DNA of 64,000 nucleotides from Thermoanaerobaculales bacterium (lineage in GTDB: Bacteria; Acidobacteriota; Thermoanaerobaculia; Thermoanaerobaculales; Sulfomarinibacteraceae): the NCBI GenBank assembly GCA_025456145.1, contig JALOLD010000048.1:6731-70730 (forward strand), given 5' to 3'. Numbering within the stretch: position 1 is the first letter of the stretch; the number at the start of each line of letters is the position of its first letter. Shown piece by piece: positions 54,514 to 62,025 of the stretch. The position numbers and the translations under genes were made by a program. A model generated the notes under the pieces. The model saw only the letters and a list, made by a program, of their open reading frames with translations. It did not search any database and had not been told where the DNA came from.

Positions 54514-55311
54514 CTAGGGGCTGGTCAAGGACCAGAAGCCGGTCGTCCCGTCCTCGAAACCGTCGGCGAAGACGAGGTCGGTGGCGAACGGCCACTCGAC
54601 CTGCCGGGCCTGGTAGACCTCGGCCGGGGCGGTCGCCGGGACGGGGTCCTGGGCCCAGGCGGTGAGCTGGATCTGGTCGTACAGGTTCCAGCTCGTAGCG
54701 TCGAAGGTGATCGGCTGGACGACGGTCTCACAGGCGCCGGCGGCGACCGCGATGTCGACCCCGGCGAGACCCTGCATCACCGTGTTGCGGTTGTAGGACT
54801 CGGTCAGGGGGTAGGTCGCGAGCGACTGGACGACGAACACCCGCATCGTCTTGCCCGTCCCGCCCGGCTCGACGCACACCTCGACCGAGACCTCGAAGGT
54901 CGGGCCGGCGAGCTGGGTCGCCATGATGTCGACCGTGACATCGGTGGGAATCGCCTGCCGGGCGATGAGCTTGCTCTCGAAGGTGCTGATCGGCCAGGCG
55001 TCGAACAGCCCGTCGTAGTAGTACGACGGGTAGCCGAGGAAGATCGGGTCGTAGAAGGCCTTGCGGGCGTCACCCCAGGGGGTGGCGTAGCTGTCGGTGT
55101 GGTGGATCGAGATCGACGCGAACGTGTCGGGGTAGGTCTCGACGAGGTACGTGACCGTGGGACCCGCGGTCGTGCAGGTGCCTCACCAGTCCGCCGTGAT
55201 GTACTCCCCGAGCACCGTACGCTCCGCCGAGAAGACCTCTCCGACCGTGAAGATCGCCGCGGCGAGCGCCGCGCCGACCACCAGGGAAGCTCCGAAGGGC
55301 CCTGTTCTCAT
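54514..55311 (-). CDS. Predicted selenoprotein A: secreted Omp28-like thioredoxin-fold protein, W-U-G-T-C, 265 aa
   Basis: GAGGAGG before ATG 55311; signal peptide; ...EYITADW-TGA(55185-55183, codon 43)-GTC-TTAGP... continues in frame into ORF 54514-54924; ends VFADGFEDGTTGFWSLTSP. Confidence 0.85.
55153..55171 (-). promoter_or_regulatory. Candidate bacterial SECIS hairpin A
   Basis: GACCGCGG-GTC-CCACGGTC, starting 11 nt after the TGA; 7 of 8 pairs (one C.A mismatch). Confidence 0.7.
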
Positions 55312-55331
55312 GATCGCCTCCTCCTCGGCGA

Positions 55332-55368
55332 AGATTGTATACAATCGCTCTCACATTGTATACAATCT
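55332..55368. promoter_or_regulatory. Twin palindromic operators ATTGTATACAAT in the divergent promoter region
   Basis: GATTGTATACAATC (55333-55346) and ATTGTATACAAT (55355-55366); centres 21 bp apart. Confidence 0.8.
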
Positions 55369-55420
55369 GCAAGCGTCAGCCCAACGACCCGGCGACGGGT
55401 CGGGGCGCCGGAGGTGGCCG

Positions 55421-55987
55421 GTGACGGAAGCTCGCTCGCGCAGGACCAACCTCGCGATCGCTCGCCCGATGTGGCTCGCGATCGTGCTCGTCGCGGTCGC
55501 CGCGACCGCCGCCGCCGGGCCGCCGCCCGACTTCCGGCTCCAGGACCTCGACGGAAACTGGGTCACCCTGTCCGACCACGTCGGCAAGGACGTGGTCTAT
55601 GTGACCTTCTGGGCGACCTGGTGCGTGCCCTGTCGGCGCGAGATGCCCTACCTCCAGCAGCTCCACGAGGACCTCGCCGACCGGGGCCTGACGATCATCG
55701 GGGTCAACACCGACCCGCCGGGGACGACGAGCAAGATCAAGCCCTACATCAAGCAGTACAAGATCGGCTACCTCACCGTCCTCGACCCGAACAACAACGT
55801 CCTCGACAAGTACAACCCGACCCGCGAGCTGCCCTACGCGGTGCTCGTCGACCGCACGGGCAACGTCCACGAGGTCTTCGCCGGCTACCGCAAGGGCGAC
55901 GAGGTGCGGCTGCGCGAGAAGGTCCTCGAGCTGCTCGACGCACCGACCGGCGGGGAGGGGGAGGCTCCGTCCGGTGACCCGAGCTAG
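55421..55987 (+). CDS. TlpA/ResA-family thiol-disulfide reductase
   Basis: GGAGG before GTG 55421 (alternative ATG 55469); signal or anchor segment; PDFRLQDLDG, FWATWCVPCRREMP, LPYAVLVDRTG. Confidence 0.92.
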   Translation: MTEARSRRTNLAIARPMWLAIVLVAVAATAAAGPPPDFRLQDLDGNWVTLSDHVGKDVVYVTFWATWCVPCRREMPYLQQLHEDLADRGLTIIGVNTDPPGTTSKIKPYIKQYKIGYLTVLDPNNNVLDKYNPTRELPYAVLVDRTGNVHEVFAGYRKGDEVRLREKVLELLDAPTGGEGEAPSGDPS

Positions 55988-57464
55988 CGCCCTCGCGGCG
56001 GTGCTCCTCGTCGCCCTCGCCCCGACCGCGGCGGCCGGGGACGACGAGAGCCCGCCGGCCAAGCGCTACCGGATCTTCGGCCAGCTGACCACCGAGCTCG
56101 AGCTCAACCAGGCCGAGGACGAGAACGATCCCGAGGACGGCGACTACACCAAGCTCAAGCAGATCGTCGCGGTCAACCTCGAGTGGTCCAAGCTCACCGT
56201 CGGCGTCCAGCTCGAGCTGCTCGACTACTCCGACCCCGAGCTCGTCGACCGGCTCGACCTCGACCGGTTGCACGACACCCTCGAGCTGCGCCGCTACTAT
56301 GTCGACTACCAGGGCGACCACCTCTCGGGGCGGCTCGGCACCTTCTTCTCGTCGCTCGGCCGCGGGCTCACGCTGTATGTCCAGAAGAACGACGTGCTCG
56401 GCTTCGACGAGCCGATCCACGGCGCGTTCGCGAAGCTCAACCTCGAGCACTTCGACATCTCGGCGGTCGGCGGCACGGTGACCGAGCCCCAGCTCCAGAA
56501 CCAGTTCAACCGCGAGTTCGAGGACGAGGTCTATGGCGGCCGGGTCATTGCCCGCCTGCCCCTCGACCTCTACCTCGGCGGCTCGGCGGTCCGCGCCGAG
56601 CTCGACCGCTTCTTCCCCGAGGGCACCGACGAGGTCGAGGTCTGGTCGGCCGAGGGCGGCGGGACCGGGCTCTTCGGCTTGCTCGACATCGCCGCCGAGT
56701 GGTCCGAGCTGACCAAGACCGAGGCGACCCGGGTGCGCGACGGGTACGGCCGGTACTTCTCGGCGGCCGCCTATGTCGGTCCGGTCTCGATCCTCGCCGA
56801 GTACAAGGACTACTACAACTTCGCCTACCGCTACAACCTGCCGCCCAATGCCGGCCGCGCCGACGAGTCCTACGATCACAACGACGTCAAGGGACCGCGG
56901 CTGCTGGTCTCGGCCGACATCCTGGCGACCGGCTCGATCGTCCACGGAAGCTACGCCGAGTTCGACAGCCACAGGACCTCGAGCTCGCCCGGCGGCACCG
57001 AGGGCGACCGTCAGACCGAGTGGTACGCCGGGCTCGAGCAGACGATCGGCCGGGTCTACTTCCAGGGCAGCTACTTCGACCGGGACTGGCTCGACCGCGG
57101 GATCACCGAGACCCACACGATCGGCGACTTCCACCTGACGGTGGGCGGCTCGGGCGAGATCATCCTGGGCTGGGACGAGCGGCTCGAGGAGGCGGACTAC
57201 TTCAGCCTCGGCACCACCCGCACCACCGCCGCCTACTCGCTCTCGCCGTGGGGCACGGTGTCGCTGCGCTACTCGTGGGAGGAGCGCAGCGGCTTCGACA
57301 AGGAGGACTTCTGGGGCGTCGAGGTCCAGGCCCTGCCGCGCAGCGACCTGATCATCACGCTGTTCGGCGGGGGCGATCCGGGCGGTCTGGTCTGCGCCGG
57401 CGGTCAGTGCCGGATCGAGCCCCGCTTCAAGGGCTACCGGGCCAACATCACGTGGCGGTTCTGA
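55974..57464 (+). CDS. DUF6029-like outer-membrane beta-barrel with a C-terminal Cys pair
   Basis: Signal peptide; RLGTFFSSLGRGLTL; AEYKDY; ends GGLVCAGGQCRIEPRFKGYRANITWRF (terminal Phe beta-signal); overlaps tlpA. Confidence 0.8.
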   Translation: MTRASALAAVLLVALAPTAAAGDDESPPAKRYRIFGQLTTELELNQAEDENDPEDGDYTKLKQIVAVNLEWSKLTVGVQLELLDYSDPELVDRLDLDRLHDTLELRRYYVDYQGDHLSGRLGTFFSSLGRGLTLYVQKNDVLGFDEPIHGAFAKLNLEHFDISAVGGTVTEPQLQNQFNREFEDEVYGGRVIARLPLDLYLGGSAVRAELDRFFPEGTDEVEVWSAEGGGTGLFGLLDIAAEWSELTKTEATRVRDGYGRYFSAAAYVGPVSILAEYKDYYNFAYRYNLPPNAGRADESYDHNDVKGPRLLVSADILATGSIVHGSYAEFDSHRTSSSPGGTEGDRQTEWYAGLEQTIGRVYFQGSYFDRDWLDRGITETHTIGDFHLTVGGSGEIILGWDERLEEADYFSLGTTRTTAAYSLSPWGTVSLRYSWEERSGFDKEDFWGVEVQALPRSDLIITLFGGGDPGGLVCAGGQCRIEPRFKGYRANITWRF

Positions 57465-57532
57465 TGGCGACCCCCGGTCATCGAACCCCCGCATCGCGAC
57501 GCACATCTCCCCGACCGGGGATGGGAGACGGT

Positions 57533-59119
57533 ATGTTCACCAGGATCCGGCTCGTACCCGCTATCGTCCTCACGGCGACGCTGCTCATCGTCACCGTCGC
57601 CGGCGCCGCCGACCGGGTGGTGCTCGGCGAGTACTTCACCAACCTCTATTGAACCTCCTGTGCGACCACGGGTCCCGTGGTCGAGCAGATCGCCGAGGAC
57701 TACCCGGACCGGTTCGCCGCGCTGTCGATGCACGTCAACGGCGACGGCTTCGACACGCCCTGGGGGCAGGACCGGCTCGACTCGTTCTACGGCATCCCCG
57801 GCGCGGTCCCGACCTTCATGGTCGACGCGCTGTGGAACTGCCAGTCCCCCGGCGACTACCGGTACTACGTCGAGCAGCAGCTCGCCAGCCCAACCGACAT
57901 GACCCTCGAGCTGTCGGGCAGCCCGGTCGGCGGAGCGACCTGGGACATCACCGCGCGGCTCTGTCACGAGGGCAGCGGCTCGCGCCCGATCCGGCTCTTC
58001 ACCGCGGCCGCCCTCGACGGCTATCCCAACCCGCCGCGCCACTCGACCAACGTCCTGCGGCAGAACGCCTTCGAGACCGATCTGGCGATCGCCGGCGGCG
58101 CCTGCGAGACCGTCACGACGCGGATCACCTTCGACCCCGAGAGCATGGCCGCCACCTCGGACATCGTGATCATCGCCTGGGCCCAGAAGCCGGCCGCCAC
58201 CGCGCCGACGACGGTCTACCAGGCGGCCGTCATGCGCTGGCCCTTCCCGGCCGGCAGCCAGCTCACCACCATCGAGATCGAGCCGGCCGACGCGACCGTC
58301 GCGGTCGGCGGCACGGTCGGCTTCACCGCCCAGGGCAAGGACCAGCACGGCGCCGAGTACCCGCTCGTCAATCCCGTCTGGAGCCTCGGGACGGGGAGCG
58401 GCGGTGGGACCTTCGACCCCGGTACCGGGACCACGACCACCTTCACCGCGACCGCGGTCGGAACCCGCCAGCTCCTGTGCAGCGAGGGCGGCGTCACCGG
58501 CGGCGCCATCGTCACCATCACCGCAGCGCCGCGCCTCGCGACCATCGAGATCGAACCTGCCGACGCCTCCGTCGCGGTCGGCGGGACGGTCGCCTTCACC
58601 GCCACCGGTCGCGACCAGTACGGCGACGAGTTTCCGCTCGGCGCCCCGGTGTGGACGATCGACGGCGACGGCGACGGGACCTTCGAGCCGGCCACCGGCG
58701 CCGCCACCACCTTCACCGCCTCGTACCCCGGGAGCGCGACCGTGCGCTGCACCGACGGCGCCGTCGTCGGCAGCACCGGGCTCGAGATCACCGGCGACGC
58801 GCCGCGGCTCGCCACGATCACGGTGAGCCCGGCGAGCGCGACCATCCGGGTCGGCGACAGCCTCGCGCTCAGCGCGACCGGCACCGACCAGTACGGCCGC
58901 GCCATCGCCCTCGCCGACCCGGTCTGGCGGGTCGAGGGCGTCGGCGCCGGCACCCTCGAGCCGGCCGGCGGCAGCGCCGCGACGACCTTCACCGCCACCG
59001 CGGTGGGCAGCGTCTCGGTGATCTGCAGCGACGACGGCGTCGAGGGGTCGGCGGCCGTCACCATCACCGCCGCCGGTCTGCCCGCGCCGCGCAAGGTCAC
59101 CAGGCGGGTCGCGCCGTGA
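57533..59119 (+). CDS. Predicted selenoprotein B: secreted Omp28-like thioredoxin fold (Y-U-T-S-C) plus three Ig-like (Big_2) repeats, 528 aa
   Basis: ATG 57533; signal peptide; DRVVLGEYFTNLY-TGA(57650-57652, codon 40)-TSC-ATTGPVV continues in frame into ORF 57677-59119. Confidence 0.85.
57664..57682 (+). promoter_or_regulatory. Candidate bacterial SECIS hairpin B
   Basis: GACCACGG-GTC-CCGTGGTC, perfect 8-bp stem starting 11 nt after the TGA. Confidence 0.78.
58262..59070 (+). repeat. Three ~90-aa Ig-like coding repeats
   Basis: L.TI...PA.A...VG......A.G.DQ.G...PVW...G.GT..P....TTFTA repeated three times. Confidence 0.85.
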
Positions 59120-59265
59120 CGCCATCCGCCGACGCCCGCCGGATCACCAGGGCGCGACCCGGTCTCGCGGCACCGTATCGAATCCTCGATCGGCCCTCGG
59201 CCGGGCCGACTGGAGGTGTGGCCCGAACCCACACGGCCGAACAGCTCAGGAGAGAGGGAGGACCA

Positions 59266-61023
59266 ATGCGCAAGGCAACACTTCTGATCGGCATCCTGCT
59301 CGCAGCCGGGATCACGATCGCCGCGGACGGCGTGCCGCTCGACGCCTATCCGAAGACGAGCATCGCCGAGGACGCCACGGCGACCTGGTGCGGCTTCTGC
59401 CCGAACGCCTACGCCGGGCTCGAGATCGTGCACCAGAACTTCGGCTACGACGCCTTTGTCAGCGTCCGCTACTACGAGACGAGCGGCAGCTACGGCACCA
59501 CCGAGACCGACGCCCGCAACGACGCCTACGGTGTCACGGGCTTTCCGACGGTGATCATCGACGGTACCAACCGCTTCGTCGGCGCCGGTACCGCGACCGC
59601 AGCCACCGGCCAGCCCTACCTCAGCACGGTCGAGGTGGCAAGCCTGGCGCCGGCCCCGATTCGGATCGACATCGACTCGTTCAACCCGGCGACCGGTGCA
59701 ATCTCGGCCACCGTCACCATGTACTCGGCGACCGCCTCGCTGAGCAACGAAACCGTGCTCTTCGTGCTCGTCGAGGACAACGTCGCGGCGAGCCACACCC
59801 ACGTCGCCCGCGACCTGATCTACGACACCATCACCCTGAGCGGCGCGGGCTCGACCGCAGTGTTCAACAAGAGCTTCGTGATCGACCCGGGCTGGAACCA
59901 GGGCAACCTCCACGCGGTCGCGCTCGTCCAGCACGAAAACCCCCCGGGTGTTCCCCGGGAGGTCCTCCAGGCAGCCTCGACCTGGCCCCAGCCGTCCTAC
60001 CGGGTCCGCGGCATGGTGCCCTTCAGCCCGATCAGCTTCGGCGCATCCTCGGGCACGCAGATGGGCGAGGAGTTCACGGTCATGAACACCGGGCTGACCG
60101 ACACCTTCACCATCGACGTCGTGGTCGACTCGGCGCCCGCCGGGTGGCAGACGACTCTGGTCGACGGTTCCGGAACGCCGCAGACCCCGCCCTACGCTTT
60201 TGGCCTCAACAACGAGGCAGCCACCACCTTCCGGGTCGACGTGACGCCGAGCTCGTCGGGCCAGATGGACTACCACGTCGAGATCGACTCGCCCAACCTG
60301 AGCTCGCCTCTGACCATCCCCTTCACCTACTTCACCGACGACCTCGACGTGATGCTGGTCGACGACGACGGCGGCGACCCCTTCGAGCTCTACTTCACCG
60401 CGGTGCTCGACGCCGCGGGCAAGAGCTACGGCGTCTGGAACCGCAGCCTGAGCCCGCTGTCGGCGGACGTCGCGACCAACACCAACGTGCTCATCTGGAA
60501 CGCCGGCTTCACCTCGCCGTCGCTCGACGCCGACGACAAGGCCTTCGTCGGCCAGTACCTCGACGCCGGCAAGGCGCTCTTCTTGAGCGGTCAGGACGTC
60601 GGCTGGGACCTCAACGAGAACAACCCCGACCCCGTGTGGTACCAGACCTACCTGCACGCCACCTATATCCGTGACGACACCAACATCATGTACCTCGACG
60701 GCGTCGCCGGCGACCCGGTGAGCGACGGGTTGACCCTGCACATCGCCGGCGGCTCGGGCGCCAACAACCAGGACTACCCGGACGAGATCGAGGCCGCCGA
60801 CGCCGACGCCACCGAGATCCTGCACTACCAGGGCGACGGCTGCGGCGCGATCCGGGCGCTCGACAGCGTGTCGAAGGCGCGGCTGGTCTACCTCGGCTTC
60901 GGCTTCGAGGGCATCGACGACGCCCAGGACCGCTCGGACCTGCTGCTCGACGCGCTGGGCTGGATCGGCCCCGAGCTCCTCATCGACGGCTTCGAGACCG
61001 GCGACCTGAGCGCCTGGCAGTAG
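59266..61023 (+). CDS. Secreted Omp28-like thioredoxin-fold protein, Cys form (W-C-G-F-C), 585 aa
   Basis: GGAGG before ATG 59266; signal peptide; EDATATWCGFCP, YGVTGFPTVIIDG, LVEDN...HVARD, LHAVALVQ...EVLQA; ends LIDGFETGDLSAWQ. Confidence 0.85.
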   Translation: MRKATLLIGILLAAGITIAADGVPLDAYPKTSIAEDATATWCGFCPNAYAGLEIVHQNFGYDAFVSVRYYETSGSYGTTETDARNDAYGVTGFPTVIIDGTNRFVGAGTATAATGQPYLSTVEVASLAPAPIRIDIDSFNPATGAISATVTMYSATASLSNETVLFVLVEDNVAASHTHVARDLIYDTITLSGAGSTAVFNKSFVIDPGWNQGNLHAVALVQHENPPGVPREVLQAASTWPQPSYRVRGMVPFSPISFGASSGTQMGEEFTVMNTGLTDTFTIDVVVDSAPAGWQTTLVDGSGTPQTPPYAFGLNNEAATTFRVDVTPSSSGQMDYHVEIDSPNLSSPLTIPFTYFTDDLDVMLVDDDGGDPFELYFTAVLDAAGKSYGVWNRSLSPLSADVATNTNVLIWNAGFTSPSLDADDKAFVGQYLDAGKALFLSGQDVGWDLNENNPDPVWYQTYLHATYIRDDTNIMYLDGVAGDPVSDGLTLHIAGGSGANNQDYPDEIEAADADATEILHYQGDGCGAIRALDSVSKARLVYLGFGFEGIDDAQDRSDLLLDALGWIGPELLIDGFETGDLSAWQ

Positions 61024-61052
61024 TGGCGCACCGACCGTTTCCGGCTCGCTTC

Positions 61053-61078
61053 ACCCCCGCCCCGGCGGGGGTCTCTTT
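61053..61078 (+). terminator. Putative intrinsic terminator
   Basis: ACCCCCGCC-CC-GGCGGGGGT followed by CTCTTT. Confidence 0.5.
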
Positions 61079-61212
61079 CGGTCCGGAGGTGGGAGGCCCG
61101 AAGGTCGGGAGGGGTCGGCAGCGCCGAGCTTCCCGGCGATCGCGGTCGTCGCAATAGCCGAGCGGGGGCGCCGTCCCCCGCCGCAACCAACACGAGCAAG
61201 GAGGAGGACCCC

Positions 61213-62025
61213 ATGAGCAACGCAGCGATGCAACGGGTGCTGGTCGCGCTCGCGGCGGTGTCGTTGGCCGCGAGCGGCGCCGTCGGCGCGGATCGGATGG
61301 TGGTCGTCGAGCACTTCACCGCCACCTGGTGAGGGTCCTGCGTGACCGCGGGTCCCGTGGTCAGCAACATGATCGACGCCTACCCGAACACTCTCGCCTT
61401 CATCGCGATCCACGACGGCGACAGCTACGAGGTCCCCTGGGGGACCATGCGCGATGGGGTGTACCAGGCGGCCTGGACCCCCTTCGACTGCCAGGACGGT
61501 CTGTATGACGCGTGGCCGATCACCAGCTACGAGTCGAAGTTCCTCGCCCGCCAGGCGATCCCCACCGACGTCACCATCGACCTCGAGGTCTTCGGCGCCG
61601 GCACCGACTGGAACGTCAGCGCGGTGGTCTGCATCGAGCCGGGCGGGACCGGCAAGACGATGAAGGTCTGGATGGCCCAGGTCCTCGACCACTACGGTCC
61701 GGCGAACTTCGACCGGAACATGGTCCGCTCCGGCACGAACGGGGTCGAGATCACCCTCGCCCCGTCCGAGTGCACGACCGTCACCGAGAGCCTCACCCTC
61801 GACTCGGTCAGCCAGGCGTCGCCGGACACCGTCAAGTTCTTCGCCTGGGCCCAGGACACGGTCTTCGTCTACAACCCGCAGGTCCAGTACATCAACGGAA
61901 CCTGGTACGGCGCCTGGTTCGGCGAGATCTACCAGGGCGCCAAGGCCCTCGCGCCCTTCGAGGGCGCCTTCCGGGACGGCTTCGAGGACGGTACCACCTC
62001 GGCCTGGGGCAGCGTCTCGCCCTGA
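61213..62025 (+). CDS. Predicted selenoprotein C: secreted Omp28-like thioredoxin-fold protein, W-U-G-S-C, 270 aa
   Basis: GGAGGAGG before ATG 61213; signal peptide; DRMVVVEHFTATW-TGA(61330-61332, codon 40)-GSC-VTAGPVV continues in frame into ORF 61342-62025; close paralogue of A; ends FRDGFEDGTTSAWGSVSP. Confidence 0.87.
61344..61362 (+). promoter_or_regulatory. Candidate bacterial SECIS hairpin C
   Basis: GACCGCGG-GTC-CCGTGGTC, 8-bp stem with one G.U pair, starting 11 nt after the TGA. Confidence 0.78.

Follow-up and report, generated by a model that had tools for sequence, protein, structure and literature searches.

The selenocysteine insertion sequence (SECIS) elements of bacteria are hairpins located shortly after a UGA codon that is decoded as selenocysteine (Sec, U in motifs). 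In the available part of the SelB structure paper (PMC4605307), they are described as having stems of 6-8 bp and, some 20 nt past the UGA, a G that is conserved in the loop. The bacterial SECIS (bSECIS) consensus, in the form given by the accessible sections of a 2026 review (PMC13188914), comprises a stem of 4-16 bp, a loop of 3-9 nt with a G in its first two positions followed by G or U, 16-37 nt separating the UGA from the loop, and an energy not above -7.5 kcal/mol. In the Escherichia coli element, the upper stem-loop lies 11 nt from the UGA and covers nt 15-31; its loop contains G23 and U24, and U17 is bulged. U17 and G23 are the SelB contacts named in the available portion of that work (PMC8659212). 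The present analysis concerns a 64,000-nt stretch of contig JALOLD010000048.1 from a Thermoanaerobaculales bacterium (the window), in which three in-frame TGA codons, in loci spanning positions 54,514-62,025, are each followed by a 19-nt hairpin. Each of these hairpins is very probably a bacterial SECIS that drives Sec insertion at the UGA.

On the protein side, one of the closest described systems is GOS_C, reported in 2008 to be a UxxC selenoprotein of thioredoxin-like fold whose gene has a SECIS-like element (PMC2398784, accessible in part). The corresponding family, NF045500, is listed as 'hypothetical protein GOS_C, UxxC' in the sections of the 2026 review that were available. The Sec-containing paralogues of the window share with this Omp28-related selenoprotein a thioredoxin-like fold, the UxxC motif, and, as far as the accessible descriptions go, a SECIS-like hairpin after the TGA; a link to Omp28 is also provided by a neighbouring cysteine (Cys) paralogue, which matches Pfam Omp28 weakly. 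They differ in that the NF045500 hidden Markov model scores them at 14.9, 17.3, and 25.1 bits against a cut-off of 200, with only about 50 N-terminal residues covered. To judge from these profiles, the window Sec paralogues are a remote branch and not members of NF045500. No literature linking Omp28, HBP35, or Thermoanaerobaculia to selenoproteins was found, in a search that did not extend to supplementary tables, where the family may be listed.

Anatomy of the hairpins

The hairpin possesses an 8-bp stem and a GUC loop, and starts exactly 11 nt past each of the three TGA codons; its shared consensus is GACC(G/A)CGG-GTC-CC(A/G)(C/T)GGTC. The pattern TGA-N11-GACCNCGGGTCCCNNGGTC, with up to two mismatches, is matched three times in the window, as compared to a mean expectation of 0.02, and none of 100 dinucleotide-preserving shuffles reached three matches. 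Stem pair 5 is G-C in copy A, A-U in copy B, and G.U in copy C, and pair 6 of copy A is a C.A mismatch. The coordinates, sequences, and 11-nt spacing are those of the original prediction, made from the letters of the sequence alone; its account of the stem was correct for the varying pair 5 but overlooked the mismatch. Hairpin B folds at -16.2 kcal/mol with one flanking pair (z-score -3.7, none of 200 shuffles equally good) and hairpin C at -14.5 kcal/mol, also with one flanking pair (z -3.2, 2/200). Hairpin A, at -10.1 kcal/mol (z -1.6, 13/200), is weaker than the other two because of its C.A pair. No run of T follows the hairpin at any of the three sites. The Cys paralogue located between copies B and C serves as an internal negative control: after its WCGFC motif (Cys codon at about 59389) there is no such hairpin, as had been noticed from the start, and the segment folds at only -6.1 kcal/mol (z +1.0). 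In the whole 4.56-Mb genome, on both strands, the exact hairpin pattern occurs four times, each time 11 nt past an in-frame TGA. The fourth copy is found on contig C3, in a paralogue displaying W-U-S-G-C-L-T-T-G-P-V-V.

Comparison with known SECIS elements

When the U of the UGA is numbered 1, the stem pairs residues 15-22 with 26-33, and the loop is formed by G23, U24, and C25. Set against the bSECIS model of Zhang and Gladyshev, as presented in the accessible text of PMC13188914, the 3-nt loop and the 8-bp stem are both in range, as is the UGA-to-loop distance of 19 nt (11 of spacer plus 8 of stem). The energies of copies A, B, and C all comply with the limit of the model, and the loops observed among the homologues, GUC or GGC, follow the rule of a G succeeded by G or U. 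The UGA lies directly upstream, at a position opposite Cys in 18 Cys homologues, in agreement with the model. Nothing essential differs from the model in the form available, the hairpin sitting at the short, tight end of its ranges.

The resemblance to the E. coli fdhF element proposed in the original prediction also stands. Like the fdhF/fdnG-type SECIS, within the limits of its available description, the present hairpin lies inside the coding region right after the UGA, its stem starts at 11 nt, G and U occupy positions 23 and 24, and it is compact (19 nt, as compared to 17 nt in E. coli). The two elements differ in that the helix is here continuous over 8 bp, without the bulged U17, and in that the loop is reduced to 3 nt (GUC), or to GGUCC if the closing G-C pair opens. 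The gene family and the phylum are different as well.

Covariation and codon choice

Homologues were gathered from 60 related genomes. They are present in 14 of the 61 genomes counted with that of the window, nearly all copies harbor one internal TGA, and in the protein alignment the U column is invariant C/U inside UxxC. The hairpin lies 11 nt past the TGA in 26 Sec homologues, which form an ungapped RNA alignment (n = 26); locus L029, whose frame is broken, and two homologues with a hairpin at 14 nt were left out of it. RNAalifold predicts exactly the same 8 pairs from these 26 sequences. Among the 208 stem cells, 95.2% pair, as compared to 32-48% in controls in which the 3' arm was slid by 1-3 columns. 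Double-sided changes occur at four of the eight pairs, in 9 cells, and none of 500 shuffles matches the observed covariation score. The changes at pair 1 include G-C to C-G and G-C to A-U, while at pair 7 a G-C to C-G change involves two synonymous third positions, Ala GCG to GCC and Pro CCC to CCG.

Codon usage points in the same direction. In a codon null that keeps each peptide and redraws its codons from the usage of this genome, perfect 8/8 stems arise in a mean of 2.05 sequences, with a maximum of 10 in 5000 trials; 20 of the 26 homologues have one. The loop-forming Gly codon is GGT in 22/26 and GGG in 4/26 homologues and is never GGC, giving loops GUC and GGC, respectively, although genome usage is 9% for GGT, 23% for GGG, and 62% for GGC. 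With a GGC codon, the second loop nucleotide would be C instead of U or G. For Val, GTG is used in 23 of 23 cases, as compared to 29% in the genome.

The two homologues out of 28 close Sec homologues that depart from the 11-nt spacing carry a related hairpin 14 nt past the TGA, after a one-codon insertion (GACCAUG-AGGUA/AGUUC-CGUGGUC). This sub-branch, L028:2446 (plus strand) and L046:2470 (minus strand) from genomes G013 and G035, keeps the same outer stem GACCAUG/CGUGGUC with 5-nt loops, AGGUA or AGUUC, and its peptide reads U-S-x-C-x-[T/S]-T-M-x-x-V-V. In named database records, close relatives are found in metagenome-assembled genomes (MAGs) of Acidobacteria and Thermoanaerobaculales, one being labelled Methylomirabilota. 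Five such loci, L102-L106, were left out of the counts; L102-L104 look like L044, L036, and L049, as judged by peptide context only. No more than a few codons away from the TGA and hairpin, the frame is broken in L029 (genome G001) and in L105 and L106, both from named MAG records, and these breaks could be assembly indels or mark decaying copies.

Sec and Cys homologues

A profile search of 400 genomes across the phylum returned matches in 21 of 401 genomes, that of the window included, and brought in distant Sec and Cys forms. Close and distant Sec homologues and Cys homologues were submitted to a strict bSECIS test. It requires at least 5 contiguous stem pairs, a loop of 3-9 nt that starts with.?G[GU] and lies 16-37 nt from the UGA, and an energy no higher than -7.5 kcal/mol. 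The test is passed by 27 of 28 close Sec homologues, the failure being copy A of the window, and by 8 of 9 distant ones, hence by 35/37 overall (rejected: copy A and L076). Among the Cys homologues, 1/18 passes, with its hairpin located elsewhere; the count becomes 1/17 without L085, a Cys locus from an unpublished genome (G109). Random TGA sites of the genome pass in 254/2987 cases (8.5%). An equal conservation of the hairpin in Cys homologues, which would have spoken against a SECIS, is thus not what is observed.

In the distant Sec homologues, the peptide (U-P-Y-C-P-S-A-x-R-G) is not the same, nor are the hairpins, which start 10-14 nt after the UGA: AUCCGCG-GUA-CGCGGAU, CUCCGC-GGC/GGA-GCGGGG, AUCCGC-GGUC-GCGGGU, and GGCCG-CGUG-CGGCC. 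Their Cys counterparts (C-Q-Y-C-P-G-A-A-R-G) have no hairpin. The two close Cys homologues have lost the peptide too, with AAAPFV and VAGDAF in place of T-A/T-G-P-V-V. Since it occurs in Sec but not in Cys forms, the hairpin travels with the TGA and not with the protein.

Selenocysteine machinery and genetic code

The genome encodes a tRNA-Sec (75 bits, anticodon TCA), SelA (499 bits), SelD (374 bits, without internal stop), and SelB (314 bits). The latter is a 640-residue open reading frame (ORF) terminated by a C-terminal SelB-wing_3 winged helix, the SECIS-binding part. TGA ends 1199 of 1548 long coding ORFs (77%); it is therefore a normal stop codon in this genome, which rules out a reassigned genetic code, and the in-frame TGA codons are local recoding events.

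Proposed mechanism and alternative explanations

The reading of each hairpin as a SECIS, already put forward in the original prediction, draws its support from this machinery, from the UxxC motif in a thioredoxin fold, from the covariation, from the bias at synonymous sites, and from the lack of the hairpin in Cys homologues. With the ribosome positioned on the in-frame UGA, the stem of 8 bp and the G-U-C loop that it carries would be found immediately outside the mRNA entry channel. SelB would then bind the loop, at G23 and U24, by its C-terminal winged-helix domain and deliver Sec-tRNA(Sec), with its UCA anticodon, to the UGA, which would be decoded as Sec, the first residue of the UxxC redox motif. 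Being part of the coding sequence, the hairpin fixes the peptide T-[A/T]-G-P-V-V together with its codons. It is well supported that the element is a canonical SECIS of the bacterial type, and that the genes which carry it form a divergent, mis-annotated branch within a class of thioredoxin-fold UxxC selenoproteins that is already known.

A number of observations weigh against the SECIS reading. Copy A combines its C.A mismatch with a modest z-score of -1.6, and the same mismatch makes it fail the strict contiguous-stem test, while it meets the published energy limit. Position 17, a bulged U contacted by SelB in E. coli, is here a paired C, and the bulge is present in none of the 26 homologues. 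The Rfam (release 15) covariance models yield no match at the three sites, whether gathering thresholds are applied or E values up to 10 are allowed. Moreover, the codon null applies the usage of this genome to all relatives, and the homologues are interrelated and include many paralogues, so that the counts overstate the independent support; despite this kinship, the direction of the RNA-level selection result is unambiguous.

The inverted repeat might have no RNA function and be a by-product of a conserved peptide, T-x-G-P-V-V, required by the protein. The stem is indeed built from codons of conserved residues, G38 and P39 being nearly invariant in the protein alignment, and the peptide alone, with random codons, gives 6.15 of 8 pairs on average. 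This does not account for the excess of perfect stems over the codon null, even the best trial of which yields half the observed number, nor for the complete avoidance of the favoured Gly codon GGC or the compensatory change at two synonymous third positions. Besides, the close Cys homologues with AAAPFV and VAGDAF have neither the peptide nor the hairpin, and the distant Sec homologues have another peptide and still a hairpin at the same distance, which makes a peptide-driven origin highly improbable. A different objection is that the TGA codons are true stops, in genes that are split or decaying, and that the hairpin acts, for example, in mRNA stability or translational coupling. It can be noted in its favor that public gene calls begin most database homologues after the TGA and that the few relatives L029, L105, and L106 have broken frames near the site. 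Yet, in 37 homologues drawn from many genomes, the TGA stays in the same alignment column and faces Cys; coding potential is continuous across it, and a stop at this place would cut the active-site UxxC in two. The read-through protein is also predicted by AlphaFold to fold with high confidence, the genome encodes the full Sec machinery, and no T run follows the hairpin; true stops are hardly credible.

The hairpin could also stimulate read-through of the UGA by a standard tRNA (Trp or Cys) in place of SelB-dependent Sec insertion. Sequence does not distinguish between the residues that might be inserted, and the absence of the bulged U17 of the E. coli element would fit with such a role. Conversely, the loop presents G and U at positions 23 and 24, where SelB makes contact, the genome has a SelB gene whose product bears the SECIS-binding wing, and the UGA stands at the place of a redox-active Cys in homologues, which is a typical Sec/Cys exchange. 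Four other selenoprotein genes of the genome follow the same logic. Read-through by a standard tRNA is very unlikely.

Other selenoproteins of the genome

The genome was screened for TGA codons that lie in frame and have coding potential to either side. Of the 78 candidates obtained, 4 are the paralogues, 20 were sent to Pfam, and the other 54 looked, on visual inspection, like adjacent genes or antisense shadows. Among the 20 examined, a Pfam domain spans the in-frame TGA in four further genes, listed in Table 1. Their hairpins start 10, 11, 13, and 15-18 nt after the UGA, and share with the paralogue hairpin a general architecture and a G-rich loop, but not the element itself. The original prediction had proposed a covariance model for finding the other selenoproteins of the lineage. 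Such a model, built from the 26 homologues and run on the whole genome, finds the four paralogues at 55.6-61.3 bits, the next match being at 21.5 bits. It retrieves none of the four other selenoprotein sites up to E = 10, with 150 of 7825 first-look candidates scored. No Sec-containing FdhA was found: no FdhA match lies above the cut-off and none has an internal stop. With SelD uninterrupted as well, there is no fdh or selD SECIS to set beside the hairpin, as the original prediction had suggested doing. The idea that the paralogue hairpin is the lineage's SECIS, or a general probe for its selenoproteome, is not supported, given the different hairpins of these four genes and the 14-nt spacing of 2/28 close homologues.

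A look-alike, GACACGGGTCCTCGTGGTC, is found 11 nt after a TGA at G000:C59:182396 (minus strand), at an apparent junction with a response-regulator gene (R-V-L-V-V-D-D-D), and was judged a chance resemblance at an ordinary stop. Separately, a candidate for an uncharacterised selenoprotein was observed at G000:C7:39837 (plus strand; loci L057 and L110). It has a CU motif, G-G-D-C-U-G-A-T-E, no Pfam match, and a GGCGAA-GGUC-UUCGCC hairpin 13-14 nt after the TGA. Its sole clear orthologue, in genome G011 (60% identity), has kept both the TGA and the hairpin.

Genes and proteins of the locus

When read through the TGA, each gene displays a signal peptide followed by V-L-G-E-Y-F-T-x-x-[W/Y]-U-x-x-C, and the frame plot shows unbroken coding potential on either side of the TGA. 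The three window genes and that of contig C3 are paralogues, with 32-46% identity to copy C. Pfam returns only a weak thioredoxin match for the window Sec paralogues, and, in NCBIfam, NF045500 'Omp28-related selenoprotein' and the Omp28 lipoprotein family are matched weakly, at the N-terminus. The AlphaFold model of the read-through protein, from an alignment of 27 sequences, has a mean pLDDT of 88 and comprises a thioredoxin-like α/β domain followed by a β-sandwich. Its best match in the PDB, by Foldseek, is HBP35 of Porphyromonas gingivalis (5y1a; TM 0.76, E 3.1e-9). HBP35 also associates a thioredoxin-like domain with a β-sandwich domain, but its sequence identity is 14%, and the likeness is one of overall fold. 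The paralogues are predicted to be exported thioredoxin-fold plus β-sandwich proteins, similar to P. gingivalis HBP35 and Omp28.

The neighbourhood of the Sec paralogues (window positions 55400-61023) also holds a TlpA-like redoxin of ordinary WCVPC motif, a DUF6029 protein, and the 600-residue Cys paralogue with its weak Omp28 match, all in one cluster. Together, they may constitute one extracytoplasmic redox module.

Table 1. Coordinates of the genes, Sec codons, and hairpins of the window, followed by the four further selenoprotein genes of the genome (contig:position)
Feature	Position	Strand	Description
Paralogue A	54514..55311	-	265 aa; signal peptide, thioredoxin-like UxxC domain, β-sandwich domain; putative start ATG 55311
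SECIS hairpin A (candidate)	55153..55171	-	DNA GACCGCGG-GTC-CCACGGTC; RNA GACCGCGG-GUC-CCACGGUC; 7/8 pairs
Sec codon TGA, paralogue A (predicted)	55183..55185	-	U is the first position of W-U-G-T-C
TlpA-like redoxin	about 55400-55987	+	ordinary WCVPC motif; frame plot and Pfam
DUF6029 protein	55974-57464	+	frame plot and Pfam
Paralogue B	57521..59119	+	same N-terminal module, then immunoglobulin-like repeats (weak Big_2 match); ends predicted from frame plot and ORF list
Sec codon TGA, paralogue B (predicted)	57650..57652	+	Y-U-T-S-C
SECIS hairpin B (candidate)	57664..57682	+	DNA GACCACGG-GTC-CCGTGGTC; RNA GACCACGG-GUC-CCGUGGUC; 8/8 pairs
Cys paralogue	about 59200..61023	+	W-C-G-F-C; weak Pfam Omp28 match, E 4.7e-7; approximate start; internal negative control
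Paralogue C	61213..62025	+	270 aa; second TGA, 62023-62025, is a real stop
Sec codon TGA, paralogue C (predicted)	61330..61332	+	W-U-G-S-C
SECIS hairpin C (candidate)	61344..61362	+	DNA GACCGCGG-GTC-CCGTGGTC; RNA GACCGCGG-GUC-CCGUGGUC; 8/8 pairs
PD40/DPP-IV-type peptidase	from 62227		frame plot and Pfam
AhpC/TSA protein	C5:20725	+	F-W-U-P-F-C; stem 22-27 / 31-36, loop GGC
Peroxiredoxin	C14:16425	-	F-T-F-V-U-A-T-E; stem 15-20 / 25-30, loop GGUC
Redoxin/TlpA-like protein	C124:10260	+	P-T-U-G-G-C; stem 14-19 / 25-30, loop AGUUG
BCP-like protein	C125:2116	-	D-T-G-G-U-T-L-E; stem 17-24 / 30-37, loop CGGGA

Significance

The general understanding of Sec recoding is unchanged by this finding, and the hairpin gives no general probe for the selenoproteome of the lineage. 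What the locus illustrates is that the E. coli geometry, an 11-nt spacer with G23 and U24, is encountered again, minus the bulged U, in a distant phylum. The site also offers a clear case from nature in which an RNA signal imposes on its host protein a peptide, T-x-G-P-V-V, along with the codons that encode it.

A bolder proposal, which we hold to be possible although rather doubtful, is that these genes form a branch, expanded in the lineage and so far unrecognised, of exported HBP35/Omp28-like selenoproteins in Thermoanaerobaculales-like Acidobacteriota, with 3-4 copies per genome in clusters that also include a TlpA-like redoxin and a DUF6029 protein, and that the bulge-less 19-nt hairpin is a naturally minimal SECIS, sufficient alone for SelB-dependent recoding. 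If this minimal SECIS were real, the bulged U17 required by E. coli would not be general to SelB recognition, and the hairpin could serve as a very short portable Sec tag.

The practical value lies in annotation. Most of 75 database homologues are 'hypothetical proteins' of 214-220 residues, with about 81% of the query covered, from gene calls that begin after the TGA. Dozens of metagenomic entries among these homologues (P0005-P0062) start after the Sec codon, a systematic truncation in public gene calls. The family is thereby represented by calls, typically of 218 residues, without their active site, and the UxxC motif together with the hairpin lets these genes be restored across Acidobacteriota.

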